Below are positions 1,900-59,637 of a DNA stretch of 59,637 bases, in pieces (position 1 is the stretch's first letter; each line of letters begins with the position of its first letter). The DNA comes from a virus. Lineage: Duplodnaviria; Caudoviricetes. The notes below the pieces were generated by a model. It was given only the letters and a program-made list of their open reading frames with translations. It did not search any database and was not told the origin of the DNA. The position numbers and the translations under genes are program-made. The stretch is taken from positions 1-59,637 of IMG/VR virus record IMGVR_UViG_3300048583_000219, one strand, 5' to 3'.

Positions 1900-1943
1900 G
1901 TCCGGACATTACACGAATCGGAAGCGTTTTTGCAAGCCTCTCT

Positions 1944-1982
1944 GCTGCGCCCGTTATGCCGCGCCGCATTCTCGGGCATGAT
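1944..1982 (+). promoter_or_regulatory. Phage-specific promoter, copy 1 (portal)
   Basis: GCTGCGCCCGTT, 21 nt, CATGAT, 6 nt, then GTG at 1989. Confidence 0.7.
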
Positions 1983-1988
1983 GCCCCC

Positions 1989-33450: not shown

Positions 33451-33468
33451 TTCCAAACCCTCAAATTT

Positions 33469-39609: not shown

Positions 39610-41405
39610 GTGCCGAACCGGCCATCGTCTCCAAGTTTCGGCAATCCCTCGACGGCAAGACCGACGAGGAGCTTGAAGCCCTGGCTTACAACTCGCCTGC
39701 GGTCCACTTCTCCCTGTTCATGGAGATCAAGGACAAGAACGGGAAATGGATCCGCCCATACGCCAATGTCCTGCAACTGCGTGTGTCCGAAGTGATCGAG
39801 CAACTGCGGGCGGAATGCCCCGGCCTGCGCATCCGGATCGTGGCAGTGAAACCGCGGCGGGCGGGTCTTTCCACCTTCTCCCTGTTCTGTGGCTACCACG
39901 AGGCCATGCGGCGGGAAATCGAGGGGATCACCATTGCGGACTGCAAGGACAACTCGGAAATGCTCACCGAGAAGCTGACGGAATACTCGACGCATGACAG
40001 TTTCCCGTGGGGAGTGCGCCAAACACAGGATGCCACCGGAGAAAAGGCATGGAGCAACGGCAGCCGGTGGGTGGTGGACACCGCGGAAAACCCGGATGCG
40101 GGCGTGGGCGGCACCCGCCACTTCGGACACTTCTCGGAGGTCGCCAAGTTCCCGCAAACGCGGGTGAAGAACGACGTGAAGACGATGACCGCGGCGCTTC
40201 CGTCCCTCGATGGTGACGAGACGATCGCCATCGCGGAGTCCACGCCAGAAATGGCTTCCGGGTGGTTTCACAACACCTTCACCGAGTCCGGCATGTGGCT
40301 GGAAGACTTCCTCAAGAAGTGGCGCAACGAGGGATACCGGCCCGGTGAACAGTGGATCAAGGTATTCGCCGCCTGGTGGGAGTTTGCGGACTACCGCCGC
40401 CAGCATCCCGTGGGAGAAGTGGAGCGGCAGGAGATCGACGAGACACTGACGCAGATCGAGCGGGAGGAACGGCAGAAATACAAGCTGACATACGAGCAAC
40501 TGGCGTGGCGGCGCGACACGATCCGTGACGTTTGCAACGGCGATGCGAAGATTTTCGCGTTCTACTACCCATCGGACCCGGTATCGTGCTGGGTGGCCGG
40601 TGGTGCACCGCGGTTCGACATGCAGCGATTGGCGGAATGGGAAGTGAGGGCGAAAGTTGCCATGCCGGAAACCGGGTATCTGGTGAAGCAGGACCGCGGA
40701 AACGTGACGTTCTCCCCGCAACACGACGGCACCGGCGACATCCTGATTTATGAGCGCCCGCTACCAGGCTGCAAATACTGCGTGGCGATCGACCCGGCGG
40801 AGTCGAAAAGCCAGACCATCGGTGCGGACACCGACCCGCACAGCCTCACGGTGTGGCGGAATGCCTACCATGATACGAACCTTGACCGGTGGATGAAATC
40901 GAAGTTGGTCGCCAGGCTGCGCCCGCCGTTCCGCGGGGAGGAAGACGAACTGGCAAAACACGCCATCCGCCTCAGCGTCTATTACGGACGCGCCCTCATC
41001 GCTCCGGAGACCAACAAGGGATTCCACACCCTGCGCGTGCTCCAAGAGGCTGGCATGCCGATCTACAAGCGCCGCCCGATTTCCCACCGCACCGGCAAGG
41101 TCGAAGAGCAATACGGCTTCAAGACCGACGAACAGAACCGCGAGGCGATCATTTCCGGACTGGCGAGCGCCATCACCTACGATCAACTCGACATCCTGTG
41201 TCCGCACATGATCGGGGAAATGAAAACATTCATCCGCGGGCCGAAGCGGGCGGAAGCCGCGCCAAACAAGCATGATGACGACGTGATGGGCGCTGCGATC
41301 GCATGGGAAGTCCTGCCAAGCGCCACGGAATACATGCGCCACGAGGCCCGCCACGAAGACCCGCCCGACGATCAAAGCTGGAAGTCGGCGGCGTGGAAGT
41401 GGTGA
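39606..41405 (+). CDS. terL: Terminase large subunit
   Basis: KPRRAGLST (Walker A-like), HFSEVA (Walker B), AESTP coupling motif, AIDPA nuclease motif and HDDDVMG. Confidence 0.85.
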   Translation: MSAEPAIVSKFRQSLDGKTDEELEALAYNSPAVHFSLFMEIKDKNGKWIRPYANVLQLRVSEVIEQLRAECPGLRIRIVAVKPRRAGLSTFSLFCGYHEAMRREIEGITIADCKDNSEMLTEKLTEYSTHDSFPWGVRQTQDATGEKAWSNGSRWVVDTAENPDAGVGGTRHFGHFSEVAKFPQTRVKNDVKTMTAALPSLDGDETIAIAESTPEMASGWFHNTFTESGMWLEDFLKKWRNEGYRPGEQWIKVFAAWWEFADYRRQHPVGEVERQEIDETLTQIEREERQKYKLTYEQLAWRRDTIRDVCNGDAKIFAFYYPSDPVSCWVAGGAPRFDMQRLAEWEVRAKVAMPETGYLVKQDRGNVTFSPQHDGTGDILIYERPLPGCKYCVAIDPAESKSQTIGADTDPHSLTVWRNAYHDTNLDRWMKSKLVARLRPPFRGEEDELAKHAIRLSVYYGRALIAPETNKGFHTLRVLQEAGMPIYKRRPISHRTGKVEEQYGFKTDEQNREAIISGLASAITYDQLDILCPHMIGEMKTFIRGPKRAEAAPNKHDDDVMGAAIAWEVLPSATEYMRHEARHEDPPDDQSWKSAAWKW

Positions 41406-44500: not shown

Positions 44501-47500
44501 CCCCCGCCCCGGATGGTTTCCACGGCGCTTGCCACCCTCGACCCGCAGGCCAAGGCACCGGACCCCGCGGAAGTCGCAGCCGCCCGCAAGCTCGTCGCGC
44601 CAAGCGTGGCACCGCTCAAGGCAATCGAAACCCTGCGCACGGATCACGAAGCCGCCATCAAGGCAAAGGACTACACCGGAGCGGCCAAGATCGACGAGGA
44701 AATCAACAGGACTTTCACCGAAGCACAAACAGCGGATGCGAAGGATGCCGCGGAAGCAGTGCTTCTCACCCGCGAGCTTGCCGGACTCGAAGAACAGGCC
44801 GCAAGCGACGTTTGGCAGGCGAATCAAGACCTCAACGCCGCCCGCGCCACTGGCGACAAGCAGGCGATCGCAGCGGCGGAAGTCGCGCTTGAACAGGTCC
44901 AGCAAGCCGCCCCGAACGTGCCGCTTGCCCGTGCTGCCGTGAAACTCGCCACGGGTCTAAGCCCTGCCGCTCTTACCGATGCGGAACTCCGCGCCGTGGG
45001 CTACAAACCCAGCGAGGGAGGTCCGCCCGTGCCGATGAGTCCGAAGGAACTGGCAGACAGTGGACTTACCAAGCCGCTGGTCCGCTTCGATTCGGCGGAC
45101 GGATCGCCAATCCTTCTCGACGAGGCCCGCGCCCAGGTCGCGCAAACCTCCGCCTTGGCCGGAAACCGCATCAAGCTCGGTGAACAGGCTGCCATGGAGG
45201 CCGCGCAAGCCCGCGTCGATGCTGCCCAACCCTCACCCACCGCACCCAATGAGCAAGACCCGCAAGGAACACACGGACCGCAAGCCACTCCGCAAGATTC
45301 ACAACCCGCACCCGCCAACCCGAACGCACCGGGTGGAGGATATGGAACTGACCAACGAACCGCTACGTCCGGAACCGAGGCGAAGAAACGGAAAGTTGGA
45401 GAGGGAGGCACGACGGGCAGCACGGCAGGAGCGTCCGGGGCTGCCGTAGAGGCTGGCATTTACGAGTCCGCCCGCGCCGTGGATCCGTCCTTGCCGGAAA
45501 TTCCTGCCCGAGTGGCGGCAGCGTTCCAAGCTGGCGAACCGGTTTCCGTCTCGATGCAGAAAGCCAGCGGGATCGACGTGCCGGAGGGCTACACGCGCCA
45601 AGGGAACGTGTGGACCCCTCCGGACGGACAAACCGTGTCCAAACCCGGACAAACCGTGTCGGAAGCGCCTGCTGGACTCGCACAAGCCGCCAAGGTGGCG
45701 GAATCCGTCAAGGCTGCCGTCATCAAGGCCATGCCCGCCCTGAAAGGCCGGATCGAGATTTCCCAAACGGGCGAGGACGGCGGCGGCGCGGACCTGCTCA
45801 TTGAGTCCGGAGTCATCCGCCTGAACATCCCAGCCATCCAGCGGGCGATCACCCGCGCCGGCGGGGACGTGGCTGCGGTCACGGAATATCTGGAAACCAT
45901 CGTGGCGAGGCATGAGGCGGTTCACGTTGTGCAGACGGAAGCCATCCGCGAGGAATGGAAAGCCGCGGGAAGCCCCGGCGAGTTCATGGACTTCTACCGG
46001 TCCTTCTATGAAGACCTCGCGGGGGAACTGCTCACCCCGGAAGCGGTCAAAGCCGCCCGCCGCATCTACGGCAAGGACAAGAAGACCGGAGAATGGCACT
46101 TCGACAAGATCCCGACCGACTACCAGAAAGCCGCGGAGTTCACGCGGATGCTCGTCGAGGCCAAACTTGACGGCAACACCGAGGCATTCTCGGAACTGTT
46201 CCGCGCCGTCAAGACCCAGGGGGCACGTTCGAAGCTCGCCAAGCTCATCCGCAAGGCGGTCGAGATCCTGACCGGCATGAAGCTCTCGCCCGCGGCGGAA
46301 GCGCACGTTGCCAAGCTCAAGGAACTGTATGCGGAACTCAGCGCCCCGGCAGAAAATGCACAAAAACCGCAAGGAAAGGCCGAATCTGCGGAAAAACCTG
46401 CAATTTCCGGCCTCCGCATCGAAACCAGCGGCAAAACCGCCCGCGTTCTCAACGGGACGGAAGTCCTGTGGGAAGGTCCGGCGGATCAGGCGCAAGCCGA
46501 GCTTGCCAGCCTCAAAGCGGCTCAAGCCTCCCCTATGTTCCTCACCGGGACCGCCATCAAGTCCGCTTTGGAGCGCTTCCCGCGCCTCGGCGGCAAGCTC
46601 CGCGCCGAACTCGAAGCCGCGGCGGATGAAGTCACGGACGCGATCGAAGCCCTGCCCGCCGGTGAACGTGCCCAGGCAGCCGAACAGGCAATTGCGGACC
46701 GGATCAACCTGATCGCGGACAGGGAAGGGGAGCGCACCGGCAAGAAGCGGGAGGAAATCATCGAGGGATTCCGCGCCGTGGCAGGCAAGCGGGCCGCCAA
46801 GCAGGCCGCCAGCATCGAGCAAGCGGTGATCGGCAGCGAAGCCCCGGAAGTTCCCGCGGGCAAGCCAGAGCGCCGCGACACGCCCAATTCCGAAATGACC
46901 GTTGATGTCGTATCAACGTATCTTGATATTTCCCAACTCGTCGGATCGTCGGACCCGCTCTTTCCCGGTGGGGCACTGCAACCGCGCAACCGCGCCGGAC
47001 AGGCCAGCCAGAACCAGCGGGAGGAAATGGTTCAGAACATCCGCGACAAGGACAACCAACATCGGCGCTACATCGAGGGTGCAACCACGGATTCAGGCCG
47101 GATGGTCGTCGCGCCGCTCTTCGGGGCGGACGGCAAGCACATGACCAACGAGGCGGGCAAGCCGATGTTCTACGTCCTGTCCGGCAATGGCCGGCGCAAT
47201 GCGCTCCAAGAAGCCGCTACGCGAAAAGTAGCTGCCAAGGTCACTGCCGGTTTCCGCGAGACTGCCGCGGCCGAAGGGATCGACGTGGAGGGCATGACCC
47301 TGCCGGTTCCAGTGTCCGTCTTCGTGCCGAAGAGCGCCAAGGAGGCGATCGATCTGGCGGAATACTCGAACCGTGACGCGCAACTCTCTGTTTCGAACAC
47401 CGAACAGGCCAACCGGGACGCTGCCAGCATCGAAAAGGCCAAGATTCTCAAGTTGTGGGAGCCGGACGCCACCGGAGACGCTGGAGCGGCCTCCAACCGG

Positions 47501-50500
47501 GACTTCGTGAAAGCCTTTGCCCGTGCCGTGGGCGACGAGGGGATCATCGACAACCGCGGGGCGCTCACCGACGAGGGCGCGAAGCGGATCGAGCGGGCCA
47601 TGGTGGCGATGCTGCTCGGTCCCGAACAGGCTCCGCTCTTGGACATGCTCTTCAACCGGTCCGGTGCCCTCGGGCTGCGCGCCATTCTCGGCGGTGTGGC
47701 ATCGGAAAGCGGTTCCCTGCTCAAACTGGCGGCATCGAAGCCGGATTTCGACCTGTCACCGGTCTTGGCGGATGCCCTACGCACGGCGGTCGAGGCCAAG
47801 CAATCGCTCGCCAACGGGGAAATCCGCGACGTGGGCGAGTTCTTCGACCAGGGGAATCTATTCGAAACAACCGAAATGACACCGGAGCGGCAGCTTGCCC
47901 GCGCCATTGTGGAAAGCCGGAGCCGCAGGGCCATCCGCGACATTCTCGGTGCATACCGTCGCGGCGCGGAAGCGGTGGACACCGGCACCATGTCGATGTT
48001 TGCGGAAGCGGAGACCACCCGCGAGGATCTGATTCTAAAAGCGCTCGAAGCGCGACCCATCGAGCAAGTGATTGCGGAAGTGGAAGCGGAGTTCGGGAAT
48101 CAGTCGGATTTAGCCCGGAAGCTGAAAGTCGGCGTGCCGGCCATCAAGAAGCTGGACCCAGGCCAGCGGCGCGAGTTCGTGGCGGCCGTCAACGCAGAGG
48201 TTGACCGGCTGCGCTCCGGCTCCGTGTCCGCGGAAGAGTGGCAGAAGCTCAATCCGGATGCCCTGAGCGCCAAGGCGGCGCTCTTCCAGCGCTTCCTCGA
48301 TTCACACACGGCGGACACCATCGCCAGCGGCTTCAACCGCCTGCTGTCCCGCCCGGTGCAAGCGGTGTTGGGATCGAGTCCGGCGACCGCACAGGACTAT
48401 CTCGACGCTTTCAAAACCCTGTTCTATGAGAAGTTGCCCAAAGCGGACCTGAAAGACGTTCCAGAAATCAGCGCCAACCCGATCGAACTGCTGCGGGAAA
48501 TCAAGCATCTGGTCGGTGTCACCTTCAACGGGCTGCAAGCCGACCGGCCGGCGGAGACGCTTGGATCATCACCCGCCGCGTCCGTCGTCCCCGATGACTT
48601 CCAGATGTTCCAGCCGGAGTCTGGAACGCTCGGCATCCCGCGCAAGAACATGCCGCAGATCAAGATGCGCAACCGCGAGGCGTTCATGGAATACCTCGAC
48701 GAGAAGGGGATTTCCCATCGAAGCGAAAGCGTGTCCCCGGACAGCATTAAGCCGGTGCAAGCGGAGTTCTCACCGTTCCTTGCCAACCGCGCGAAAGGCA
48801 TCGACTTCCATCGCGCCCTGTTCATTTCCTCGGACAATCATCTTCTCGACGGACATCACCAGTGGCTTGCACAGGCGGACCGCCCCACGGTGGACGTGAT
48901 CCGGATCGACGCGCCGGCCCGCAAGGCATTGGGGCTGATGTTCCAATTCCCGCTCGTGGAGAAATCCGCAGGATCGGCCACCTTGGGATCAAGCCCCGCG
49001 GAAGACCTTCAAGCCGCGGCGAAAGAGTTTGAGGAAGTGCTTGCGAAATACAAACGCGAGGCAGGCCCGCAGGAGTCAGAGCAACAGGTGTTCGACCGTT
49101 TGCGCGACCAGTTCGGAAACGAGAAGGTCGAGGCCACCATTGCCAAGTATGAAGAGCGCTTTGCAAAGCTGGCACCCTTCAAAGAGTCATTCGATGATAC
49201 TCTCCGAGAAATCTCAAAAAACCACGGGGCGGAACCATTGCTTGCACCATTGAAAGGCCGCAAGCGTGGTGTCGAAAAGGCTTTGATTGAATACGGCGGA
49301 CGAGTCTCGCGCATGGGCGACATCGTGCGCGGTTCCATCGTGGCAGATACCATTTATGAAGTGGATGCCATCGCGCAGGAGATTCACCGCCGATGGGAAG
49401 GCAAGATCAAGAAGTTTGAAAACCGGTTCACTCCGCCTCTGCCAAGTGGTTATTCCGATATGATATTCCATGTGGAAATCGCGGACGGTGTGGTTGCAGA
49501 GGTGCAGATTCACATACCGGAAATGCTGCGCGCCAAGGAAGAGGCGGGGCACTTGCTGTATGAGGAATATCGCCGCATCAAGAAAGACCCTGCGAAAAAA
49601 GAGCGCACCATCGAACTCAGCGAACAAATGCTGGAGGTTTATTCGTCAGCGGCAAAGCTGGCAATCGCCCGCGCCAATGCCTTGTCGAAGTCGGCGGGGG
49701 AAACCTCCCTTTCGTATGCCAACTTCATCGCAGTCTTCTCCGACACCGGAACAGGCTTGCCGGTGAAGAGTCCCACGGGGGGGGCATTGGGAGGATCGGC
49801 AATAGGCACGTCTTCCACATCGAAGAACTTGGTGCCTGGTGGGAAATCGGAAGCTCTCATTACGCTTCCTAATACAAAAATCGGTGGTTCAGATCAAGAC
49901 ATTTCTGGTAATTCTAAAAAAATTCTTGGGTCTTCGACCGCCCCGGAGGCGTATGTTCGACTGACCAAAGGCGACAACGGCAACGACCTACTCACTCCCA
50001 CCACGTCCCAAGAGTTTTGGGCGAAACGGAATCCAAAGGCCGCGGCAGCACTCCGCAAGGTGATCGACCGCCATGCGACGGAGAAAGGCTATTTGGCGGA
50101 CAAGTATCTGCACGGCACACCAGGCAACAACCAAGCTATCGCGGACGAATCAGAGAAGAATGATCCCAACATGATCCGGGGCTATGAAGGCACAGCCCCC
50201 GGCGACTTCGATGTTTTCGACTCCGCCAAAACCAAGGGCGGCATGGGACTGCATTTTTTCACAAAGGAAAAGGCGTGGGCAGAATACTTCACGGGGCTCG
50301 AAGACACCAACAACCGCGCGCCAGGCGGCTATCGCTTCATTCCTGCATATCTTCGGATTCGTAAGGCGTGGGACATTGCCAACCCTGAACATCGGCAGTT
50401 GATCGAGGATTTGATTCCGGAAAATCAACGCGGCGAAGTCTTGGCGGGGCAATATGGTTGGATGCCGGTGGAGACACCGGATGTCATTGCCCGAATCAAA

Positions 50501-53500
50501 AGCCTTGGATTCGACGCAGTTCGCCTCAAGGAAGCCGACACGGAAGGGTGGGACGCGGAGGGCTATGACACTGTGGCGGTGTTTGACTCCCGCCAGATCA
50601 AAGACGCCTCGCTTGTGACCTTCGATGCTGCCGGCAACATCATCCCGCCCGCGCAACGATTTAACGATTCCAATCCGTCGATTCTCTATTCCTCCCCGGT
50701 CGCGGAACTCGACCTGTTCGGAGCCGTCGAAGAACGCATTTCCGGCCCGCGCGCCAAGGTGAAGCGCAACGCCGCGGAAACGCTCCGCAAGGCACCGGAG
50801 GCCGCCAAGCAGAACGTCGCCAAAGCCATCGCCAAAGCGGAAGGACTGGCGGACCTCGACCTGTTCGCAGCCGCAGCGGTTTCCAATCTTGACGCGAAGC
50901 CTCGCCGGGGTGAGAGTGTGCCAGATGCAAGCGACCTTCTCGGCGGAACTCGTGGCACCGGCACTCGCAGGGCTGACGGAAACGCAGCTTCGCAACCTGG
51001 TCGATCAAAAGACGTTCGGGACGTGGCTGGAGAAGATGACGACCTCTTCGGATTTGCCGGGAATCGCCCCGGACTCTCCGGAGGCGGGCGAGGCGGCAAC
51101 AGCAACGGCCAACTCGGAACAGACGGCAGCGGACTTGCTGGCGACACTGACGGAGGAACAGCGGGAGGAAGCGGCGAGGCTGGCGTATCTGGCAATCGGC
51201 CCGTCCGCGGAGAACGAGATTCTGGCGCTGACGTAATCGAGCTTGGCTCCGATGGACTGCCGGCGGAAGTGCCGGTTCCGGAGAATGAAGCGGACCGCAA
51301 TGCGCGGATCGACCCGCGGGAAAACCTCGCGCCGAAAGGGCAGGCTTCCAAGATCAAGGCCAACTTCGAGGTGATCGAATTGTTGCGCCTGCTGCAAGCG
51401 GAAGGCCGCAACCCGACCGAAGCCGAAAAGCGCACACTGCTGACTTATTCCGGCTGGGGACACTCGAAAGGCGCTTTCGACGACGCCAAGGCGGAAGCCT
51501 TCGCCCGAGTTTCCGACAACGGCGATCCTGATGCCTACTACAACCGCATGTGGCGGACGATGCCGCGCGACCAGTTCAAGCGGAACTACAACACCCGATC
51601 AAAAGACCGCCAAGGCAACGAGTCGCCTTCCATTTTCGAACTCTACTCGTGGAATGAGAAGTGGGGCGAAACTCACCGGGAACTGAAAGAGCGCCTGAGC
51701 GAGGCGGAATACAAGGCCGCCAACCGTTCAATCCTAAACGCCCACTACACCACGCCGGAAATCATCGATGCGCAATGGCGCATGGTCGAAAAGCTCGGGT
51801 TCAAGGGCGGGCGCGTACTCGAGCCGGGAGCCGGCATCGGTCACTACATCGGCACTCAGCCGGAGCGCCTGGCAGCCCGGTCGATCTGGTCCGCGGTGGA
51901 ACTCGACAAGGTGACATCGCAGATTCTCGCCCTGCTGTATCCGCAAGTGCGGGTGAACTCTGTATCCTCCGCGGAAGGTCGGGAAGTGACCGGCCAAGGC
52001 TTCGAGGAAGCGCTGATTCCGAACAACTCGCAAGACCTCGTGATTTCCAACGTGCCGTTCCACGAGAAAGGCCCGTGGCAGTCGCAGAAGGAATACAAGC
52101 AGGAGTTAAACCTTCACAACTACTTCTTCGCCCGCGCCCTGGACAAGGTGAAGCCGGGGGGATTGATCTGCTTCATCACCTCGTCCTCGACGATGGAGAA
52201 CAACGCCCGCCAGCGGGCATTCCTCGCATCAAAGGGCGATCTGGTCGCCGCGGTGCGCCTGCCGAACAATGCCTTCAAGGAAAATGCCGGCACGGAAGTC
52301 ACCACCGACATCATCATCATGCGCAAGCCGGATGGCCGCAAGGTGGAGTCTCATGCGTGGATGGAGACCCGCACGGTCGGACGCGACAAGGTGCGCTTGG
52401 AACGCGGGGATCAAACCGCCGTCCAATACCTCAAGGGGATTCATCCGGAAACGACATGGCTGGATGCAACCTTGGATGCCGCGCGCGCCGCATGGGTGGA
52501 AGCCCGCCGGGAGCGCGAGGCTATCAAGGACGGCAAGGAGCTTGCCGCGGAACGAAAAGCCGCGGATGAAGTGACATCGGCCGCATGGAAATCCTACGTC
52601 GCTGCCTTCGAGCGTGCCGAACAGGCCGCCCCGTCGTGGAAACTGGAAGCGGAGGTTCCCATCCGCGTGAACGAATACTTCGCCAACAACCCGGCGAATG
52701 CCTTCGGCAAGCACTCGCTGGCCGGATCGATGTATCGGGCGGACGAATACACGCTGGAACCGGACCCGGAGGGCGGCACGCTCACCGAGCGCTTCGAGGC
52801 TGTGATTGAAAGCCTTCCGGAAAACATCACCGGCCAGGGCAGCACGATCAAGCTCGCCACCGCGAAGGACATGGAGCGCGGAGACAAGCCTTTCTCGTTC
52901 GTCGAGCGGGATGGGAAGTTCTGGCAAGTGATGAAAGACCGCCTCGAACCGGTCGAGTGGTCGAGTCAGGAAATCATGGTGTTCCGGTCATGGGCAGGCG
53001 TGCGGAATGCCGTGCGCGAACTGGTCGCCGCCGAACTGGACCCGACCGCCGCCACCGATGAACTTGCGGACCTGCGCAAGGCACTCAACGAGGCATACGG
53101 TCGCCACATCGGCCTTTACGGACCGATTTCCAAGACGGGCCGCGGCGCGAAGCACGATCACCTTGCCGAAGACCCGGATTTTCCTCTCACGCTCGCCTTG
53201 GAGACGGAAGAGCGGTACACCGACAAGAAGGGCAAGCCCGCCGTGCGCTACCTCAAGGCGGACATTTTCCGCACGCGCATGAACAAGCCGCTGATTCCCC
53301 CGACCACGGCGGAAACCACGGAAGAGGCGCTTACCAACTCGCTCGTCTGGATCGGCTATCCAAACGTGCCCTACATGGCGAAACTGCTCGGCAAGCCGGT
53401 GGAACAGGTCGAGGCGGATCTGGTCGAATCGGAACTGGCGTTCATGGACCCGGTGAGCGGGCAATACTCCATCCGTGATTCCTACCTGTCCGGATTCGTG

Positions 53501-56500
53501 CAAGGGAAGCTCGATACCGCCCGCGAGGCTGCGAAAGAAGACCCGGCTTTCAACCGCAACGTGAAAGCGCTGGAAGCCGCCCTGCCGGAGCGCAAGGGCA
53601 TTGCCGCCATCGGCGTGTCGATGAATGCGCCGTGGCTGCCGCGGGAAGTTCTCGCCGGATACCTCGAAAGCATCGGACTGGCGGAGGCGAAGGTTGAATA
53701 CAACGCCGCTGCAAATATCTGGTCGGTCTTCGGTGTGGGCAATTCGGATAGGTTCATGCTCAACGGTGGCACTACCGACGACGGAATCAGTTACAAGGGA
53801 ATTGCTACGGTCGAACTGGTTCAGCACGCCTTGGAAATGACGGACCCGGATGTGACCGGGACCATCGGCACCGGCAAGGACAAGCGCACGGTTCCTTATC
53901 CGGCTGGCAACGCCTTGGCAAAGACCAAGATGAACCAGATGAAGGAGGATTTCGTCAAGTGGGTCAAAACCACGGACGCGATGATCGGGGATCAGGCGGT
54001 TCAGGACATCGTGGTGAACTCCTTCAACGAAAAGGCCAACGGGCACGTCCCTCCTTCTTTCGAGGGTAAGCACATCACGCTTCCCGGTGCGTCGGAGGAA
54101 GTCTATCGCACGGGCATCCGCCGCGGGGCCATCGCCCGCATGCTGGATCAAGGCGCGGGCATGATCGCGCACGGGGTTGGTTTCGGGAAGACTTACACGC
54201 TCATTGGACTGGCGATGGAGTTGAAGCGCCTCGGCAAGGCCAACCGGCCGATGATTACCGTCGAGAACGCCACCCTCCAACAGTTCGCCGCCTCGTTCCG
54301 CGTGGCATATCCGCAGGCGAAACTCTTGGTTGCGGATTCCAAGTCATTCGAGGGCAAGAACCGCCGGCGCTTCATCGCCCGCATCGCTACCGGGGATTAC
54401 GATGCGATTGTGATGGCACACTCGCAGTTCAACCTCATCGCCAATCATCCGGACGTGGTGAACAGCTACATTGACGAACAGGTTGCGGAACTTGAAGCCG
54501 CCCGCGCCCTCACGGATTCCGCAGACCGCCGCGCGGTGGCCGCCTTGGAAACCGCCAAGATCAACTTGGAGAACTCCCGCAAGAAGATGCTCGATAGCCT
54601 GGCGAAGCGCCAAGACCTCGGCCTTTATTGGGAGAATTTGGGAGTCGATGCCCTGCTGGTGGACGAAGCCCACCGGTTCAAGAACGCGCCCATCATCACG
54701 CGCATGCGCAATCTCAAGAACCTGCCCACCGGCACGCCGTCACAACGCGCGATCGGCATGGTTCTCAAGACCCGCTCGGTGCAGAACCGGATGGCCGGCC
54801 GCGGCGTGTATTTCGCCACCGGCACGCCGATTTCCAACTCCATCGCGGAATCATACATCATGATCCGCTACACGAATCCCAACCTGCTCCTGGAGCAAGG
54901 GATTGAGAACTTCGACCAGTTCGCCGCGCAATACTGCACGAGCACCACGCAGGTAGAATCCAACTGGAAGGGCAAGATTTCCTCGGAAACCCGGTTCTCA
55001 CGCTACATCAACGGCGATGCACTGATGAACCTCGTGGCTTCCTCGTGGGACATCAAGATTGATCCGGATCTTGCGGGCATCAAGCGCCCCACCGTTAAGG
55101 GCGGCGGACCGGAATCCATCCTTGTCGAGCCGGGTCCGGCCAATCAGGCGTTCAACGCATGGGTGACGAACACCATCGCCGCGCAATGGGACGATCCGGC
55201 GTACTGGCAAAGCCTTGGCGGACGCAAGCAGGCACTCGAAGACGATCCATGGCTTTCCGCCGTGCCGATTATGACGATGCAGGCCGGCATTGCCGCGGCG
55301 CTCGATGTCCGCATGGTGGACCCGAACGCGCCGGACTTCGAGAATAGCAAGGTCAACACCGCGGTCCGCAAGACGGTGGAACTCTACAAGGAGTCCAACG
55401 ACCGCCTTGGAGCGCAAGCGGTGTTTGTCGATCTGCAAGGGGATTTCTCCATGGATCACCTTTTAACCTTCGCCGGAGACCCCGGCTTGTCCGAAAAGGG
55501 ACTGGAACCGCCCGAACTCGATAGCGAGGGCAATGCAGTGCATGAGAAGAAGGGCAAGAAAAAGCGCCAGTTCGACATTTACAACGACATCCGGGACAAG
55601 CTCGTGGCGGCCAAGATTCCCAAGTCGGAAATCGGCATGGTCCGCGCCGGAATGTCCAAGGACGCACGCGCCGAACTCTTCGAGAAGGTCAACGCCGGCC
55701 AAGTCCGCATTATCATCGGATCATCCGATACGATGGGCGTTGGCGTGAACATCCAAGAGCGCCTTTTTGCCGCGCATCACCTCATGCCGCCGCGGGACTT
55801 CAAGCCATCGGCCATGGAACAGCGCAATGGTCGTATCCTGCGCCAAGGCAACCAGCATTACGATTTGGAAGTGGAGGCGTTCGTGGAAACCGCGGAGCGC
55901 GAGACCGGCCAGAAATTCCGCAAGGAAAGCCGGGGCCGCCAAGTGCCGGACCTCGATGCGGCGAAAGCCGCCCTCGAAGGCAATGCGGACGCTCTTGCCA
56001 AGGCGGAAGCCGCCGCGGAGAAGTATCACATCCGCATCCTCGAATACGGCATGGAAAAGTCCATCGACTCCGCCATGTATTCGATGATGGTCGCCAAGCT
56101 GCTCGGCTTCAACCAAGTGCTCACCGGCAACGGCGGCAACTCGTTTGAAGATCCCTCGGACGCGATCACGATGAACATGGCGGAAATGGCCGCCCGCACC
56201 ATCGGAGACCCGCTCTTGATCCGCCTCGTGGAACTGGAACGCGATGTTCGCTCGCTGGAACTGGAATATCGCGGTTGGCAGGACGATGTTTCGAGCGCCC
56301 GCGAGACACTTCGCCGCACCCGCAGCGACATCCGTTGGTATGAAACCCGCATGGAGGAAACCGAGCGTTATGCCGAAGTAGTCGGCAAGGTGGATTCCAA
56401 TGATGAAGCCTTCGCCGTGTGGGAGTTTGGCGGCAAGACGATCGACCGCAACAAGCCGAAGGATGCTCCGAAAGGCTGGCAACAGCCGAAGATCACCGAA

Positions 56501-59500
56501 GCCCTCGACCTGTTCCTTGCGGAAGAGAACTCGAAGCTGAAGAACTCGGACCGGAAAAAGTCCACGGTGGAAATCAAGGTGGATGGCGTGCCGTTCGCGG
56601 TGGAACTCCACCAGCAACTCACGCAGGAACATTCCGCGGTCGGATACGTCCAGTGGGGCGGCATGAACGGCATGAAGGACGTGCCATACAAGAGTTTCAG
56701 CGGTGCCGGATCACTGCTTTCCGCCATTCCCGGCCTTGCCAAGCAGGCGCGCAACATGCCAGCGGAGTACAGGGGGACGATTGATTACATGACGAAGAAA
56801 ATCCCCGCCTTGGAGCGCTCGGCGGAAACCGTCTTCGAGCGGGATGCCGAATTGCGCGCGCTCTACGCGGAACAGGATCGGGTGAAGGAAGCGCTTGCCG
56901 CCGCGGCAGCGCCCACCCCGCCGCCGACTCCGGCCGCGCCCAAGCGGAAGAAACCCGCGGACCTTCCGCCCATGGTGCCCGCAGATCCCAAGCTGATGAC
57001 CGCGGAAGTCCGCGCCATCCTCGAACGCGCCACCATCCAGGATGACGTGCTCACCCTGCCGGAAGAACTCCCGCGCAAGGTGTATGAGCGGGTAAACAAA
57101 ACGCTTGAATCCGCCGGCGGCCAATGGGACCGCGCCGCCAAGGGGCACGTCTTCGCCGGAGACCCGAGGGAAGTGCTCGGACTCGCCAAAGCGGAGACCG
57201 CCACACCGGAGCAAGTCTCCCGTGTGGAATCCCTGCTTCGCTCTGAAGGCCCGGAGACCTACCCCGGCAAAGGACTTGCGCCGGCGCTGGCGACTTTGGG
57301 GAGCTCGCCGGCTTCATGGGGCGATTACTCCGCCCAACCCGGTCCGCACAAGTCAGGCTTCGAGATTCGAGCCCGCAACATCGTGGAAGGTTTCATGTCG
57401 CCCGACTTCAAGTATCGGGTTGGCAACGATTTCCGAGTTCCAGAAGGGCGCAAGCTCATCGCTTCCAACTTCGCGGAATACAAAGAAGGCAAATACAAGC
57501 TCGGGCTGTATCGCCTGCTGCTGCTGGAAAACGCTCAAGGACAGCGATACGTCGAAGTCGAAAAAGGCATCGGCTACAACGGCGGAACGACTGGCGAAAC
57601 GCTTGAGTTTGAGCGCATCTCGAATGATGCAATCGACCGTAATTCCGCACTTTCCGAGCGCTCGCGCAAACTGTGGGAAGCTCATCCTGCGGGGCAACAA
57701 CAAGCCTCGTTGTTCTCCTCACCCGCGCCCGAGCAATCCTCCGCGGTGCAGGAAGCGCTTGCCATGATGCCGGAAGTGTATCGCCAAGTCTTCGAGGGCA
57801 TCGAGGGCGGCGCTTCCGTCACGGAAGTGACCGGCAAGTTCAACATCACGCCGCGCGCGGTGGACAACATCCTCAACCAAGTGCGGGCGAGAATCCACGT
57901 CGCAATAAGAGCTGCAAGTGCGGAGGGATTGCAACCCGCAATGAAAGGCGACAGATTTGCTGGTGGGCGACCCGATCTTGCCCTTGGCGGGCGTCCAGAA
58001 ATGGCGGCAATTCATCAAATCCGCAACGAGTCTGGAGTCCCAGACGTGCGCAAATGGGCAGAAGTGGATGCCGCTGCGCGCGACATGCTCAAACAAGATT
58101 ATCAAGGCACATACGATGCGCTGCTTGAAAAAGCGAAAGCCCTGCAACCAATGACGGATTTGGAAGTCTCGGCGACGAAGATGATTCTGGCCCGAGAGAC
58201 GTTGAGTGGAAAGCTCATGGACCCGACGGAACGCGTGAAACTTGCCATGTTGGAATATGGCCACACGGAAATAGGTTCCGAAACCGCGCGAGCACTCGCA
58301 ATTCGCCGCGATCCAGAAATGACACCGGCGGAACGTCACGCCAGAACCATTGCATCGGCCATGCTGCATCCCGATCCGCAAACACGAGCGAGGATGAGAA
58401 AAAACCCACAACTTCATGCCGAAATCCTTGCCGGATGGATGCAGCGGGTGGACCGCATCAAAGCGGACCTGCTTGCCCAGGGGATCGATCTGGACGCCTC
58501 GCTGGCCGCCTTCCGGGCCTCGCAGGATGCCAAGGCGCAAGCCGCGGACGAGAGCCCGCAAACCACCCGCATCATTGACGAGCAAATCCGCAAGCTCAAC
58601 CGCCGCGAAAAAGGCGTGATCGAAGCCATCCGCGGCGGCGCTCTCGTCTCCAAGGCGGCCTTCATCACCGGCCTCTCCACCGATGAAGTGAAAGCGATCT
58701 ACGGGCGCTTCCTCACCGACATCCGCGCCGCCATGGCGGAAAGCGCCAAACGCTACCTTGCCGGTGCCCTCGGATCGTCGCCCGCAGACATGATGGGCAG
58801 CATTCTCGAAAACCTCGGCTTGCCGGATATTTCTGCCATCGACGATACGGTGAAGGGATTTGTGGACCGCCGCGGCGAGAAACCTCGCGCCCCGCGCAAG
58901 CCCCGCAAGGCCAAGACCAAGGCGGAAGCCCCGGAAGCCCCGGAGGCTCCAGAGGCACCGGCGGTCCCCGAGCTCACTCCGGAGCAACAAGCCCGCCTGG
59001 ATCAAGAGTGGCAGCGCTTCTTGAATTCCCCGCTGTCCACCTGGAAGGCGTTTTCGCAGGAAATGGGCTGGCTGTCTTGGACTCAGGAGCAAGCCGACGC
59101 TTTCCTTGAGAAAGCCGAAGCCATCAAGAAAGACTGGACCAAGCAAAAAGACCTCATCGACGCACGCGAGGGGATCAACGAAACGAATGGCACCTTCGAC
59201 ATTCACGACCCGGCCAGCGTCAAGGAAGTCATCGATGCCTTCGCCGTCGCCCGCGGTTCTTTCCCGGATGCGCTCATGGAGTTCTGGCGCGCATCGATCC
59301 TGACGGGCCCGCAAACGCATGTGGTCAACACCTCGTCCAACGTCATCAACGCGGCGTGGAATTTGCTGCCGCGCCGCGGCGTCGAGGCGGCCATCAATAC
59401 GATCATCGGAGACCCGAAGAGCGCCACTTTTGCGGAGTTCGTGCCGATTGCGAAAAACCTCCGCAAAGGAGTCCAACTCGCCGCCCGCAACGCCCTGCGG

Positions 59501-59637
59501 GCATGGCAGATCGAAACCCGCGTTTTTGAATCCTACGCCATGGCGGAGGCGGTGAATCTCGATTTCAGCGGCGTGAAATCCGAATACATCCCACCGGCCT
59601 TGGGCGGAAAACTCGGCAAGGTGATGCGGTCTCTCTC
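41573..59637 (+). CDS. Giant DarB-like polyvalent protein, ~6,526 aa, continuing across the origin to 1643. Domains: HExxH metallopeptidase, DdrB-like ParB, ParB-like, RelA/SpoT, ADP-ribosyltransferase, N6-adenine MTase, SNF2 helicase, sigma4-like HTH
   Basis: The track lists no stop-terminated ORF in this frame after 41573, so the frame is open to the end. Motifs translated by hand: HEAVH (45911), LQPRNR...SGNGR, LDGHHQW, GYSD...EVQIH, YLHGT...VAVFDSRQIK, LEPGAGIG/SNVPF, HGVGFGKT/DEAH/QRNGRILRQGN. Confidence 0.9.
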   Translation, partial: MPKYNRSLPEDEIASYLAQARQGTAGVNPRAQTLARSSSNRRAQRFGQDMMADQMEQNARNAEDIARDQDRAAKEAEAAAKAQATEQAKAERAAHYRNVREAEAQGAKIVTDIPTGRRTVATHPDGGTMFEKGEVGEPFIQPTAEAAISSVPGIGDMMRLTRPADKQTLDQTTEVAQKFRDDRGRETIAPLPSDTDPKTGEITGKLKDTFGQTVPVKLGTDQRIAASNQREAAIKAEKQKLDLRENQLNQAKALFDPQWAPVKKEFDALGKELNSFPKTFRKNQTTGKWEKIDPKTDSGIPYDPRELTVWQKERDALQTRYEAAKAKHDQMLPAAENFNRNEREISQKRLKLEAERLKLASGRPLDEDLAQLLADKPESVKPEDVAAFGDNQPPANSSEQPVGANNAPAGESRLPRVLDAMDAAEARIRRDAAIGDIDPATAERKTQALAALKQQTVEQAKTEAAAQLEAQGREIASQFIGTGVRSQELTGAKPGNYAGIKNEISEMGAFIMGKDNTPEKSAQMFRLAGNDLDGAIKLAEGETKKNLTAMKAAFDKAGIKPEDRTRIIQDAAKSQAWTEKDKDNLRKLSTGDLVINPGRVFGQKDAMIAEINASDATPEAKAAAVERLDAMREAMEGKLFRATVAADDDFEDFANSQFKAGNRDKSAILDQWAEQQKARGWVFKATDAVTEGVKTGSVGVVKTLVGGAAGVSALVGADGAAKSLGQAASDMGNVIQSEKEAAKLRGMTGSFGIASDLTDTVVQMAPMIAGGTVAGGLKGMSAIATRGMSAYGWAGAQGYESKLADAVSIAEQQKGSALTGEEIAAVLGRTDTQVAAFLNGAQTAILAAAMPKGAERVALGVKSGSMTVSDFLRQGGMRAIKDGTLRTELKAMGKTIFADATDEALEEFSNQVLDGMISVAALDQELKLGDLLEESFKAGALGGLVGGGLPQVYRGETKADKHKQMVAALQQQTLGTPPPRMVSTALATLDPQAKAPDPAEVAAARKLVAPSVAPLKAIETLRTDHEAAIKAKDYTGAAKIDEEINRTFTEAQTADAKDAAEAVLLTRELAGLEEQAASDVWQANQDLNAARATGDKQAIAAAEVALEQVQQAAPNVPLARAAVKLATGLSPAALTDAELRAVGYKPSEGGPPVPMSPKELADSGLTKPLVRFDSADGSPILLDEARAQVAQTSALAGNRIKLGEQAAMEAAQARVDAAQPSPTAPNEQDPQGTHGPQATPQDSQPAPANPNAPGGGYGTDQRTATSGTEAKKRKVGEGGTTGSTAGASGAAVEAGIYESARAVDPSLPEIPARVAAAFQAGEPVSVSMQKASGIDVPEGYTRQGNVWTPPDGQTVSKPGQTVSEAPAGLAQAAKVAESVKAAVIKAMPALKGRIEISQTGEDGGGADLLIESGVIRLNIPAIQRAITRAGGDVAAVTEYLETIVARHEAVHVVQTEAIREEWKAAGSPGEFMDFYRSFYEDLAGELLTPEAVKAARRIYGKDKKTGEWHFDKIPTDYQKAAEFTRMLVEAKLDGNTEAFSELFRAVKTQGARSKLAKLIRKAVEILTGMKLSPAAEAHVAKLKELYAELSAPAENAQKPQGKAESAEKPAISGLRIETSGKTARVLNGTEVLWEGPADQAQAELASLKAAQASPMFLTGTAIKSALERFPRLGGKLRAELEAAADEVTDAIEALPAGERAQAAEQAIADRINLIADREGERTGKKREEIIEGFRAVAGKRAAKQAASIEQAVIGSEAPEVPAGKPERRDTPNSEMTVDVVSTYLDISQLVGSSDPLFPGGALQPRNRAGQASQNQREEMVQNIRDKDNQHRRYIEGATTDSGRMVVAPLFGADGKHMTNEAGKPMFYVLSGNGRRNALQEAATRKVAAKVTAGFRETAAAEGIDVEGMTLPVPVSVFVPKSAKEAIDLAEYSNRDAQLSVSNTEQANRDAASIEKAKILKLWEPDATGDAGAASNRDFVKAFARAVGDEGIIDNRGALTDEGAKRIERAMVAMLLGPEQAPLLDMLFNRSGALGLRAILGGVASESGSLLKLAASKPDFDLSPVLADALRTAVEAKQSLANGEIRDVGEFFDQGNLFETTEMTPERQLARAIVESRSRRAIRDILGAYRRGAEAVDTGTMSMFAEAETTREDLILKALEARPIEQVIAEVEAEFGNQSDLARKLKVGVPAIKKLDPGQRREFVAAVNAEVDRLRSGSVSAEEWQKLNPDALSAKAALFQRFLDSHTADTIASGFNRLLSRPVQAVLGSSPATAQDYLDAFKTLFYEKLPKADLKDVPEISANPIELLREIKHLVGVTFNGLQADRPAETLGSSPAASVVPDDFQMFQPESGTLGIPRKNMPQIKMRNREAFMEYLDEKGISHRSESVSPDSIKPVQAEFSPFLANRAKGIDFHRALFISSDNHLLDGHHQWLAQADRPTVDVIRIDAPARKALGLMFQFPLVEKSAGSATLGSSPAEDLQAAAKEFEEVLAKYKREAGPQESEQQVFDRLRDQFGNEKVEATIAKYEERFAKLAPFKESFDDTLREISKNHGAEPLLAPLKGRKRGVEKALIEYGGRVSRMGDIVRGSIVADTIYEVDAIAQEIHRRWEGKIKKFENRFTPPLPSGYSDMIFHVEIADGVVAEVQIHIPEMLRAKEEAGHLLYEEYRRIKKDPAKKERTIELSEQMLEVYSSAAKLAIARANALSKSAGETSLSYANFIAVFSDTGTGLPVKSPTGGALGGSAIGTSSTSKNLVPGGKSEALITLPNTKIGGSDQDISGNSKKILGSSTAPEAYVRLTKGDNGNDLLTPTTSQEFWAKRNPKAAAALRKVIDRHATEKGYLADKYLHGTPGNNQAIADESEKNDPNMIRGYEGTAPGDFDVFDSAKTKGGMGLHFFTKEKAWAEYFTGLEDTNNRAPGGYRFIPAYLRIRKAWDIANPEHRQLIEDLIPENQRGEVLAGQYGWMPVETPDVIARIKSLGFDAVRLKEADTEGWDAEGYDTVAVFDSRQIKDASLVTFDAAGNIIPPAQRFNDSNPSILYSSPVAELDLFGAVEERISGPRAKVKRNAAETLRKAPEAAKQNVAKAIAKAEGLADLDLFAAAAVSNLDAKPRRGESVPDASDLLGGTRGTGTRRADGNAASQPGRSKDVRDVAGEDDDLFGFAGNRPGLSGGGRGGNSNGQLGTDGSGLAGDTDGGTAGGSGEAGVSGNRPVRGERDSGADVIELGSDGLPAEVPVPENEADRNARIDPRENLAPKGQASKIKANFEVIELLRLLQAEGRNPTEAEKRTLLTYSGWGHSKGAFDDAKAEAFARVSDNGDPDAYYNRMWRTMPRDQFKRNYNTRSKDRQGNESPSIFELYSWNEKWGETHRELKERLSEAEYKAANRSILNAHYTTPEIIDAQWRMVEKLGFKGGRVLEPGAGIGHYIGTQPERLAARSIWSAVELDKVTSQILALLYPQVRVNSVSSAEGREVTGQGFEEALIPNNSQDLVISNVPFHEKGPWQSQKEYKQELNLHNYFFARALDKVKPGGLICFITSSSTMENNARQRAFLASKGDLVAAVRLPNNAFKENAGTEVTTDIIIMRKPDGRKVESHAWMETRTVGRDKVRLERGDQTAVQYLKGIHPETTWLDATLDAARAAWVEARREREAIKDGKELAAERKAADEVTSAAWKSYVAAFERAEQAAPSWKLEAEVPIRVNEYFANNPANAFGKHSLAGSMYRADEYTLEPDPEGGTLTERFEAVIESLPENITGQGSTIKLATAKDMERGDKPFSFVERDGKFWQVMKDRLEPVEWSSQEIMVFRSWAGVRNAVRELVAAELDPTAATDELADLRKALNEAYGRHIGLYGPISKTGRGAKHDHLAEDPDFPLTLALETEERYTDKKGKPAVRYLKADIFRTRMNKPLIPPTTAETTEEALTNSLVWIGYPNVPYMAKLLGKPVEQVEADLVESELAFMDPVSGQYSIRDSYLSGFVQGKLDTAREAAKEDPAFNRNVKALEAALPERKGIAAIGVSMNAPWLPREVLAGYLESIGLAEAKVEYNAAANIWSVFGVGNSDRFMLNGGTTDDGISYKGIATVELVQHALEMTDPDVTGTIGTGKDKRTVPYPAGNALAKTKMNQMKEDFVKWVKTTDAMIGDQAVQDIVVNSFNEKANGHVPPSFEGKHITLPGASEEVYRTGIRRGAIARMLDQGAGMIAHGVGFGKTYTLIGLAMELKRLGKANRPMITVENATLQQFAASFRVAYPQAKLLVADSKSFEGKNRRRFIARIATGDYDAIVMAHSQFNLIANHPDVVNSYIDEQVAELEAARALTDSADRRAVAALETAKINLENSRKKMLDSLAKRQDLGLYWENLGVDALLVDEAHRFKNAPIITRMRNLKNLPTGTPSQRAIGMVLKTRSVQNRMAGRGVYFATGTPISNSIAESYIMIRYTNPNLLLEQGIENFDQFAAQYCTSTTQVESNWKGKISSETRFSRYINGDALMNLVASSWDIKIDPDLAGIKRPTVKGGGPESILVEPGPANQAFNAWVTNTIAAQWDDPAYWQSLGGRKQALEDDPWLSAVPIMTMQAGIAAALDVRMVDPNAPDFENSKVNTAVRKTVELYKESNDRLGAQAVFVDLQGDFSMDHLLTFAGDPGLSEKGLEPPELDSEGNAVHEKKGKKKRQFDIYNDIRDKLVAAKIPKSEIGMVRAGMSKDARAELFEKVNAGQVRIIIGSSDTMGVGVNIQERLFAAHHLMPPRDFKPSAMEQRNGRILRQGNQHYDLEVEAFVETAERETGQKFRKESRGRQVPDLDAAKAALEGNADALAKAEAAAEKYHIRILEYGMEKSIDSAMYSMMVAKLLGFNQVLTGNGGNSFEDPSDAITMNMAEMAARTIGDPLLIRLVELERDVRSLELEYRGWQDDVSSARETLRRTRSDIRWYETRMEETERYAEVVGKVDSNDEAFAVWEFGGKTIDRNKPKDAPKGWQQPKITEALDLFLAEENSKLKNSDRKKSTVEIKVDGVPFAVELHQQLTQEHSAVGYVQWGGMNGMKDVPYKSFSGAGSLLSAIPGLAKQARNMPAEYRGTIDYMTKKIPALERSAETVFERDAELRALYAEQDRVKEALAAAAAPTPPPTPAAPKRKKPADLPPMVPADPKLMTAEVRAILERATIQDDVLTLPEELPRKVYERVNKTLESAGGQWDRAAKGHVFAGDPREVLGLAKAETATPEQVSRVESLLRSEGPETYPGKGLAPALATLGSSPASWGDYSAQPGPHKSGFEIRARNIVEGFMSPDFKYRVGNDFRVPEGRKLIASNFAEYKEGKYKLGLYRLLLLENAQGQRYVEVEKGIGYNGGTTGETLEFERISNDAIDRNSALSERSRKLWEAHPAGQQQASLFSSPAPEQSSAVQEALAMMPEVYRQVFEGIEGGASVTEVTGKFNITPRAVDNILNQVRARIHVAIRAASAEGLQPAMKGDRFAGGRPDLALGGRPEMAAIHQIRNESGVPDVRKWAEVDAAARDMLKQDYQGTYDALLEKAKALQPMTDLEVSATKMILARETLSGKLMDPTERVKLAMLEYGHTEIGSETARALAIRRDPEMTPAERHARTIASAMLHPDPQTRARMRKNPQLHAEILAGWMQRVDRIKADLLAQGIDLDASLAAFRASQDAKAQAADESPQTTRIIDEQIRKLNRREKGVIEAIRGGALVSKAAFITGLSTDEVKAIYGRFLTDIRAAMAESAKRYLAGALGSSPADMMGSILENLGLPDISAIDDTVKGFVDRRGEKPRAPRKPRKAKTKAEAPEAPEAPEAPAVPELTPEQQARLDQEWQRFLNSPLSTWKAFSQEMGWLSWTQEQADAFLEKAEAIKKDWTKQKDLIDAREGINETNGTFDIHDPASVKEVIDAFAVARGSFPDALMEFWRASILTGPQTHVVNTSSNVINAAWNLLPRRGVEAAINTIIGDPKSATFAEFVPIAKNLRKGVQLAARNALRAWQIETRVFESYAMAEAVNLDFSGVKSEYIPPALGGKLGKVMRSL
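49639..49860 (-). CDS. Nested antisense gene (73 aa); candidate antitoxin for the RelA/SpoT domain
   Basis: Protein-like sequence with its own TTGATC-17-TATTAG promoter 8 nt before the ATG; the host frame here is S/T/G-rich linker. Confidence 0.55.
   Translation of the reverse strand: MRASDFPPGTKFFDVEDVPIADPPNAPPVGLFTGKPVPVSEKTAMKLAYEREVSPADFDKALARAIASFAADE
50925..51236 (+). CDS. Nested same-strand, alternative-frame gene (103 aa; weakly TnpV-like)
   Basis: TTGACG-17-GAGAGT, 7 nt, ATG; helical sequence; the host frame is G/R/D-rich linker. Confidence 0.45.
   Translation: MQATFSAELVAPALAGLTETQLRNLVDQKTFGTWLEKMTTSSDLPGIAPDSPEAGEAATATANSEQTAADLLATLTEEQREEAARLAYLAIGPSAENEILALT
59511..59637. 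repeat. Terminal direct repeat, copy 2
   Basis: Identical to nt 1-127. Confidence 0.97.

Follow-up and report, generated by a model that had tools for sequence, protein, structure and literature searches.

A recurrent LxSSP-type word marks the module junctions of a giant polyvalent phage protein and is a candidate processing signal

We describe here a short peptide word, LxSSP with its close variants, that recurs between the modules of one giant protein encoded by a virus of the Caudoviricetes (Duplodnaviria), IMG/VR record IMGVR_UViG_3300048583_000219. The whole stretch of DNA that was analysed, hereafter the window, covers positions 1 to 59,637 of that record. Our conclusion is that the eight copies of the word are genuine, depart strongly from chance and constitute, at the protein level, junction signals of a phage polyprotein built from cassettes. 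We further consider it probable that the junction words are endoproteolytic processing sites at which the modules would be released, and the LxSSP-type word is the best candidate yet for the cut sites in giant injected proteins of this kind.

The initial annotation had listed eight L[GYF]SS[PT] motifs in a single reading frame, and translation of the frame that opens at 41498 returns precisely these (Table 1). They account for all L.SS.. matches (a full stop standing for any residue) in the 6,046 residues of the giant protein that are read in the window, and the C-terminal part of the gene, which wraps around to the start of the record, holds no further motif. The Ser-Ser codons vary between copies as had been recorded, and the eight 18-nucleotide strings all differ; the word is therefore not a DNA repeat, and the peptide is what is conserved. 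Enrichment of the motif, proposed as a check on its reality, is pronounced when 20,000 residue shuffles of the giant protein serve as the null: eight L[GYF]SS[PT] are observed against a shuffle mean of 0.018 (maximum 2) and an analytic expectation of 0.020, and five LGSSP against a mean of 0.005 (maximum 1; analytic 0.006). When the whole window is scanned in six frames, one extra match appears, LFSST at 6852, which is out of frame with both of the open reading frames (ORFs) listed around it (6423..6746 and 6743..7261). The 32 other candidate ORFs, amounting to 10,059 residues, contain no strict match and one relaxed match, to [LMIV].SS[PTAE].

It is important to note that the giant gene does not stop where the window does. 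The first 127 bases (1-127) are identical to the last 127 (59511-59637), an exact terminal overlap, and the window is a closed circular phage genome, complete at 59,510 bp. The giant ORF had been taken to end at the end of the window, a reading that has to be corrected, since the overlap carries the gene across the contig ends to a stop at 1643. The gene has 6,551 codons if counted from the TTG and 6,526 if counted from the ATG at 41573, makes up 33% of the genome and is sited between the terminase and portal genes.

The motifs had been said to bracket ParB-like, RelA/SpoT, ADP-ribosyltransferase (ART), methylase-helicase and helix-turn-helix modules, and the placement of Pfam domains agrees with this: each of the listed segments between motifs holds one recognisable unit, and no unit spans a motif. 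Within the methylase-helicase module, the Eco57I methylase, ResIII and Helicase_C domains score above the Pfam cut-off. The N-terminal piece is free of motifs, is about 2,265 residues long and holds a hydrophobic Gly/Ala-rich stretch, a zincin-like domain and the ddrB-type ParB domain. The 141-residue module that follows motif 2 shares 32-47% identity with the N-terminal domain found in the DarB-like giants of podophages (Ralstonia, Pseudomonas F116-type and Erwinia PEp14-type), and the C-terminus of the protein has no match in NCBIfam and, by tblastn, weakly matches the 'internal virion protein D' that Desulfovibrio phage ProddE encodes. The word PLxRFG is absent from the giant protein. With disparate domains in one chain, signature families above their gathering scores and a late/virion gene context, the protein has an architecture that fits the class called "polyvalent", and we take it to be probably a DarB-like virion protein of that class. 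Two hints, the position of the gene and the weak resemblance of the C-terminus to an internal virion protein, suggest that it may be delivered together with the DNA.

Table 1. Junction motifs, modules of the giant protein and other features of the window (nucleotide positions are those of the window; residues are those of the giant protein)
Feature	Position	Residues	Strand	Remarks
Motif 1, LGSSP	48368..48382	2291	+	
Motif 2, LGSSP	48560..48574	2355	+	Opens 141-residue DarB-N-like module
Motif 3, LGSSP	48983..48997	2496	+	Opens RelA/SpoT module
Motif 4, LGSST	49925..49939	2810	+	Opens ART-PolyVal module
Motif 5, LYSSP	50684..50698	3063	+	Opens 2,204-residue methylase-helicase (DarB-type) module
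Motif 6, LGSSP	57296..57310	5267	+	Opens 138-residue module without known family
Motif 7, LFSSP	57710..57724	5405	+	Opens sigma-70 region 4 helix-turn-helix module
Motif 8, LGSSP	58769..58783	5758	+	Opens 794-residue C-terminal module
Giant polyvalent-protein gene, first part	41573..59637		+	TTG opens frame at 41498; likely ATG start at 41573
Giant gene, last part	1..1643		+	C-terminal virion/ejection-type module; stop codon ends at 1643
Zincin-like domain	45683..46372	~1396-1625	+	HEAVH at 45911-45925 (residues 1472-1476)
ddrB-like ParB domain	46895..47314	1800-1939	+	PF18763, 33.1 bits against cut-off 27.6; upstream of motif 1
RelA_SpoT		within 2496-2809		Pfam, 25.7 against cut-off 27 (below)
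ART-PolyVal		within 2810-3062		Pfam, 40.9 bits against cut-off 31.2
Eco57I-type methylase + ResIII/SNF2 + Helicase_C		within 3063-5266		Pfam; SNF2-rel_dom below cut-off
Sigma-70 region 4 helix-turn-helix (Sigma70_r4_2)		just after 5405		Pfam, below cut-off
Terminase large subunit	39606..41405		+	PHROG match; directly upstream of giant gene
Portal protein	1893..4064		+	PHROG match; directly downstream of giant gene
398-residue head-region ORF	7033-8229			F5/8 type C (discoidin) domain, Pfam 69 bits
Major head protein	10284-11873			PHROG match
Tyrosine integrase	18005-19117		-	One of two in one 59.5-kb genome
Mom-like DNA modification protein	31189-32037			phrog_1384
Tyrosine integrase	33403-34443		+	One of two in one 59.5-kb genome

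The motif and its placement are conserved in relatives. A search of 5.8 billion proteins gave 120 homologues of the giant protein; 11 of the 19 best have three to eight copies of L.SS[PT], against 0.13-0.24 expected, and among the next 101 there are one or two copies in six and none in 95. The 74 [LM].SSP copies found in 12 proteins have flanks in common, with S, A, V, T or I at -1, G, A, F, Y, M or L after the Leu, A, T or S after the Pro and then a second Pro in 39 of the 74. In an alignment of 18 proteins, five junctions (2291, 3063, 5267, 5405 and 5758) have the motif in identical columns, and large insertions and deletions directly adjoin it at the variable junctions. The spacing within modules is kept in relatives while the neighbouring modules differ, so that modules are present or absent as cassettes: the ART module runs from motif to motif at 2756-3004 in P0009, 2921-3169 in P0008 and 2810-3063 in the window protein, and the helix-turn-helix module has 352-357 residues between motifs in six relatives. 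Our argument rests on this spacing and on the 18-protein alignment, since the blastp queries for module boundaries had been cut at the motifs beforehand and alignments starting from query residue 1 are partly forced. Other effectors in the Pfam lists of the relatives include Zeta toxin, RadC and nucleoside-diphosphate kinase, among others.

In IMG/VR, nine related loci were found with an alignment as query; single-protein queries (the C-terminus; the portal) for related loci found nothing. As in the window, the giant ORF is the only one with the motif in L002 and L003, and in the giant protein of L003 (P0141) two motifs stand back to back with nothing between them (LGSSPTALFSSPT). Homologues of the C-terminal module that stand alone in L008 and L009 (921-928 residues) begin roughly 140 residues ahead of where motif 8 lies, and they give no precise confirmation of that boundary. 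The giant protein of L005 has the ddrB-ParB, helix-turn-helix and C-terminal modules and only one LGSSP; no blastp alignment was obtained between it and the methylase-helicase module of the window.

In sister lineages the junctions carry other words. At aligned junctions P0010 and P0011 have L[GYFL]SSAE; in P0015 the aligned junction that precedes the methylase-helicase module reads VLNSRR. Further words recur in linker-like contexts that are shared: GGA-INSR occurs six times in P0015, LSAP five to six times in P0024, LSAA, LSAP or LSSA six times in P0025, L.SAP five times in P0186 and LNAQS six times in P0171, and P0203, P0233 and P0244 have six to seven copies of LVNQ or LVNE. Nearly all of these variant words begin with Leu. 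It should be borne in mind that 4-mers repeated at least four times are found in 60 of 121 proteins, and that most of these are due to chance (AGLV, EKGA, TTAD and the like). A change of the boundary word as a set between lineages is what would be expected of a co-evolving recognition system, and would not be needed by a plain linker. In P0203, P0233 and P0244, LVNE or LVNQ is also seen at residues 15-23, which would fit the removal of a short N-terminal propeptide at a like site.

A structural model of residues 2240-3130, which covers motifs 1 to 5, bears on whether the motifs lie in linkers, as the initial annotation had proposed to check. All five are in coil with a predicted local distance difference test (pLDDT) score below 50, and none lies within a confidently folded element; only motif 3 separates better-modelled domains. 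Motif 3 (2496) is in a 10-residue stretch with pLDDT below 50 (model positions 251-260) between domains with block means mostly of 60-88, motif 2 is in a 37-residue coil adjoining the first better-modelled domain, and motifs 1, 4 and 5 are in low-confidence coil beside poorly modelled neighbours.

The N-terminal piece contains the HEAVH sequence that had been put forward, alongside a phage maturation protease, as the source of the cutting activity. An AlphaFold (AF2) model of this region, made from a 13-row alignment, has a mean pLDDT of 86 and comprises a helix (8-27), three strands (35-38, 47-50 and 55-59), a helix that carries HEAVH (74-106) and a later helix (157-173) with E1547 and R1550. 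The region is thus modelled as a zincin core, with its N-terminal helix, three strands and active-site helix, and the same core is described for the metallopeptidases of polyvalent proteins in the available text of PMC5512222. A profile search of 1.84 billion representatives found the domain in only 135 clusters, in most cases around residues 900-1,700 of proteins 1,000-6,400 residues long, and this rare family is almost restricted to giant proteins. The conserved positions E1473, H1476, E1547, R1550 and E1566 correspond to a signature over the 135 clusters of [E 90 / H 39]-E(130)-x-x-H(132)...E(134)-x-x-R(133)...E(123). On the model, E1547, with its Glu kept in 134 of 135 members, would be the third metal ligand, and to our knowledge an Arg three residues after the conserved Glu has no counterpart in classical zincins. 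The ESM Atlas returned viral clusters only, among which one has LPD23 on 18% of its members. VIA-align, run over 48,161 chains, gave mostly globin-like rows that matched the helical half; among the named rows whose match covers the sheet as well as the HExxH helix are four zincins, anthrax lethal factor (Z 5.7), Acel_2062 (Z 5.2), ArdC (Z 4.9) and TTHA0227 (Z 4.6). An early hint that loss of HExxH tracks loss of the motifs, which came from an EExxH clade (P0004, P0006 and P0016, with 5, 0 and 3 motifs), was rejected because P0141 is EExxH with nine LxSSP and EExxH is the majority state.

The domain and the words tend to occur together. Among stored proteins of at least 2,000 residues, and with the word restricted to linker-type residues, a word that begins with Leu, Ile or Met and is repeated at least five times was found in 18 of 111 proteins with the domain against 1 of 99 without it. 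The lone word-bearing protein without the domain, P0017, has the ART, helix-turn-helix and C-terminal modules of the family and no constant N-terminal piece ahead of the ART module. P0044, listed under Luteolibacter flavescens, has both the domain and two LFSS[TP] words. An unrestricted Leu-anchored statistic (at least five copies) gave 21 of 106 domain-bearing proteins and 13 of 104 others, and did not separate the groups.

From this set of results we propose the following mechanism. The giant protein would be a virion-packaged polyprotein with a constant N-terminal piece of about 2,265 residues, exchangeable effector cassettes and a constant C-terminal ejection-type module. The cassettes would be, in order, the DarB-N-like module, RelA/SpoT, the ADP-ribosyltransferase, the DarB-type methylase-helicase, the 138-residue module and the helix-turn-helix, each bounded by the word [small]-L-x-S-S-P-[A/T/S]-(P). 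The cutter would be the embedded [H/E]ExxH...ExxR...E zincin-like domain, acting inside the capsid or after ejection. Should the enzyme behave like a gluzincin whose S1' pocket is hydrophobic, cutting would be expected immediately ahead of the near-invariant Leu. Cuts at all eight motifs would divide the giant protein into pieces of 240.6, 7.1, 15.6, 34.3, 28.0, 242.2, 15.4, 38.5 and 88.3 kDa. Position, conservation, variant words and occurrence in the giant protein only all fit the inter-module processing that the initial annotation had suggested; the cutting itself, like the enzyme, its timing and the bond, is something we infer from sequence. As to the enzyme, the two candidates named there have fared differently: the HEAVH domain in cis is the better one, given its zincin-core model and its company with the motifs, and no maturation protease was recognised with PHROGs, Pfam or NCBIfam. 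That the packaged polyprotein is processed at the motifs, most likely by the embedded zincin-like domain, we suggest tentatively, as slightly short of an even chance. More doubtful, and offered as a possibility, is a broader picture in which uncultured phages would follow a true polyprotein strategy, a new [E/H]ExxH...ExxR...E family would cut co-evolving, lineage-specific codes (LxSSP, LxSSAE, LSAP, LNAQS, LVNQ/E and INSR), and cassettes would be swapped as ready-to-release units.

Several results weigh against this reading. The HEAVH region has no Pfam match at E up to 1 and is in no curated peptidase family; a profile search of the Protein Data Bank (PDB) with it gave aureolysin only, at E = 0.5, and Foldseek found nothing at E up to 0.001 in either the PDB or BFVD. 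The Z-scores of the zincins in the VIA-align scan are below the tool's noise mark of about 8, and a few non-zincin rows span the same range. The HExxH of the window is a minority state in a family where 90 of 135 members have EExxH, and these include P0141 (nine LxSSP) and the INSR and LSAP lineages; since EExxH members keep their motifs, a classical zinc site is not required for the motifs to persist. Conversely, P0019 has HExxH and no recurrent motif. The counts of co-occurrence are phylogenetically non-independent. As to position, the model of residues 2240-3130 has a mean pLDDT of 49.6, with 537 of its 891 residues below 50, and with 60% of the modelled residues at that level the placement of the motifs in coil is weak evidence; junction 5758 has well-conserved flanks without insertions or deletions and may be structured. 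Docking between the zincin-like domain and a linker of 40 residues that includes motif 3 gave no verdict and is used neither way. Finally, we found neither proteomic data nor cleavage reports for the family, in no member of which has cleavage been observed, and N4 virion RNA polymerase, ArdC and TraC1, all polyvalent proteins bearing a metallopeptidase, are transferred uncut according to the available text of PMC5512222.

There are three other possible explanations for the junction words. The first is that they are cut by another protease, either an unrecognised enzyme of the phage head module or a host protease after ejection. Searches of the head module with PHROGs, Pfam and NCBIfam turned up no protease, and several of its ORFs match nothing; between portal and capsid, the ORFs at 4081-5094, 5094-6398, 8542-9117 and 9178-10224 have no family match in any library and could encode a novel protease. 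The persistence of motifs in EExxH lineages, and the lack of a significant match between the embedded domain and any peptidase, also favour this explanation. However, head-maturation proteases normally cut capsid, scaffold or portal proteins too, and the motif is absent from the 32 other ORFs of the window and from the non-giant ORFs of L002 and L003. Its presence in no other protein argues against a general head-maturation protease, and a switch of motif from lineage to lineage would be easier with a protease encoded in the same gene than with a conserved host enzyme. We therefore regard cutting by another protease as unlikely.

The second explanation is that the motifs are not cut at all, and instead act as conserved flexible hinges or docking signals between modules (contacts, for instance, for capsid packaging or portal transit) or as places where Ser is modified. 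Their composition (Ser, Pro and small residues) is typical of linkers and they are in predicted coil; moreover, the uncut delivery of other metallopeptidase-bearing polyvalent proteins (PMC5512222, available text) provides a precedent, the DarB-like giants have no cleavage data, and the virion proteomics of JC1 reports, in the available text of PMC9144972, the presence of its giant protein only. On the other hand, a plain linker needs neither a near-invariant Leu nor a fixed five-residue word, would not be exchanged as a set for a different word in each lineage, and serves no hinge purpose where two motifs stand back to back with nothing between them. This explanation too strikes us as improbable.

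The third is that SSP-type linkers are intrinsically labile or self-processing and need no dedicated protease, as has been suggested for gp84, the decorating esterase of the Stx phage phi24B. A preprint (bioRxiv 10.64898/2026.04.10.717836) describes, in its available text, delayed interdomain processing of gp84 and two linkers that have only SSP-containing motifs in common; in the sequence of gp84 we confirmed that its only two SSP (GSISSPEEP at residue 57 and VRPSSPSGA at residue 414) are at the linker positions given there. This explanation is highly improbable, in that the phi24B words have no Leu, have only SSP in common and number two, phi24B's own 2,808-residue polyvalent protein contains no SSP, the head genes of the window have no detectable similarity to phi24B (13 head-region proteins gave no tblastn match), and the sister-lineage words without SSP (LNAQS, LVNQ and INSR) argue for recognition rather than chemistry. 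The phi24B esterase gene lies at 3315-5252 of L010, and both of its SSP sites have an upstream VSE in common.

The surrounding genes are those of a phage: PHROG matches identify terminase, portal, major head protein, RecT, a DnaB-type helicase, a Mom-like protein and integrases. Searches of the cultured phages in our collection with the capsid protein of the window, and likewise with the zincin-like domain, gave no match. The Mom-like protein would add a second anti-restriction device besides the DarB-type module. The head-region ORF with the F5/8 type C domain may have a role in carbohydrate-binding decoration or adhesion. In the two ORFs just after the portal gene (4081-6398; 337 and 434 residues) the G+C content dips to 0.50, from about 0.60 elsewhere; PHROGs, Pfam and NCBIfam offer no family for either, and the pair may represent an acquired island.

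With regard to what is known already, the polyvalent class and the idea of its processing have been described, while the junction words, their lineage variants and the [E/H]ExxH family appear to be undescribed in the literature searched, supplementary files aside. Iyer, Burroughs, Anand, de Souza and Aravind (2017; PMC5512222) predicted that an embedded zincin-like metallopeptidase processes polyvalent proteins into units. The giant protein of the window resembles the proteins of that paper in having disparate enzymatic domains in one chain, encoded near virion genes, and in its ART-PolyVal, ddrB-ParB, methylase-helicase dyad and RelA/SpoT. It differs in that the available text of PMC5512222 names no cleavage-site motif, whereas the family of the window has a recurrent, lineage-variable junction word, and in that the zincin-like domain is missed by Pfam peptidase models and is mostly EExxH across the family. 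Our literature searches on LGSSP and on polyvalent proteins found, in the available texts and with supplementary files aside, no relevant paper that defines a junction motif. The cutting of polyvalent proteins into effectors has been predicted since 2017, and a defined junction word makes this prediction directly testable. The word is also a rule for parsing huge proteins into functional cassettes, which would aid the finding of new anti-defence effectors in metagenomes, and, provided that the enzyme turns out to be active, the variant words would supply orthogonal pairs of protease and site as a natural set.

The Dar antirestriction system of phage P1 (DarB, DdrB, DarA, Hdf, DdrA and Ulx) likewise has a DarB-type methylase-helicase and a DdrB-type ParB, which in P1 are packaged in the head. 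In the available texts, P1 DdrB reportedly undergoes proteolytic processing and bears a metallopeptidase domain (PMC5512222), and P1 DarB, of 250 kDa, is a head protein whose N-terminus carries a capsid-targeting signal (PMC9024508). Unlike the single chain of 6,551 residues with junction motifs in the window, the Dar proteins are encoded by separate genes, and P1 has a prohead protease (Pro), of which no counterpart is recognisable in the window. The gp84 of phi24B is like the window protein in being a podophage virion protein that is processed between domains at linkers with SSP; it differs, according to the same preprint text, in having two sites without Leu that are ascribed to autoproteolysis by the esterase, and the phage is unrelated by sequence. 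The DarB-like giants of Bcep22-, F116- and PEp14-like podophages (for example JC1 gp69, 4,515 residues) have the N-terminal domain that the 141-residue module of the window matches. They are late-gene products that make up about a fifth of the genome and are found in virions by mass spectrometry, with no processing reported in the available text (PMC9144972). The zincin-like domain and the capsid protein of the window, in contrast, are found in no cultured phage of the collection.

Cleavage words are familiar from head maturation and from the polyproteins of RNA viruses: L/I-x-E for T4 gp21, S/A/G-x-E for phiKZ gp175 and Q/G for picornavirus 3C. The junction words of the window and its relatives resemble these in being short, degenerate words at unit boundaries that co-vary with the lineage of the putative protease. 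They differ in that the word of the window is found in one protein only, which is neither capsid nor scaffold, and in that the proposed enzyme would be a metallopeptidase-like domain inside its own substrate.

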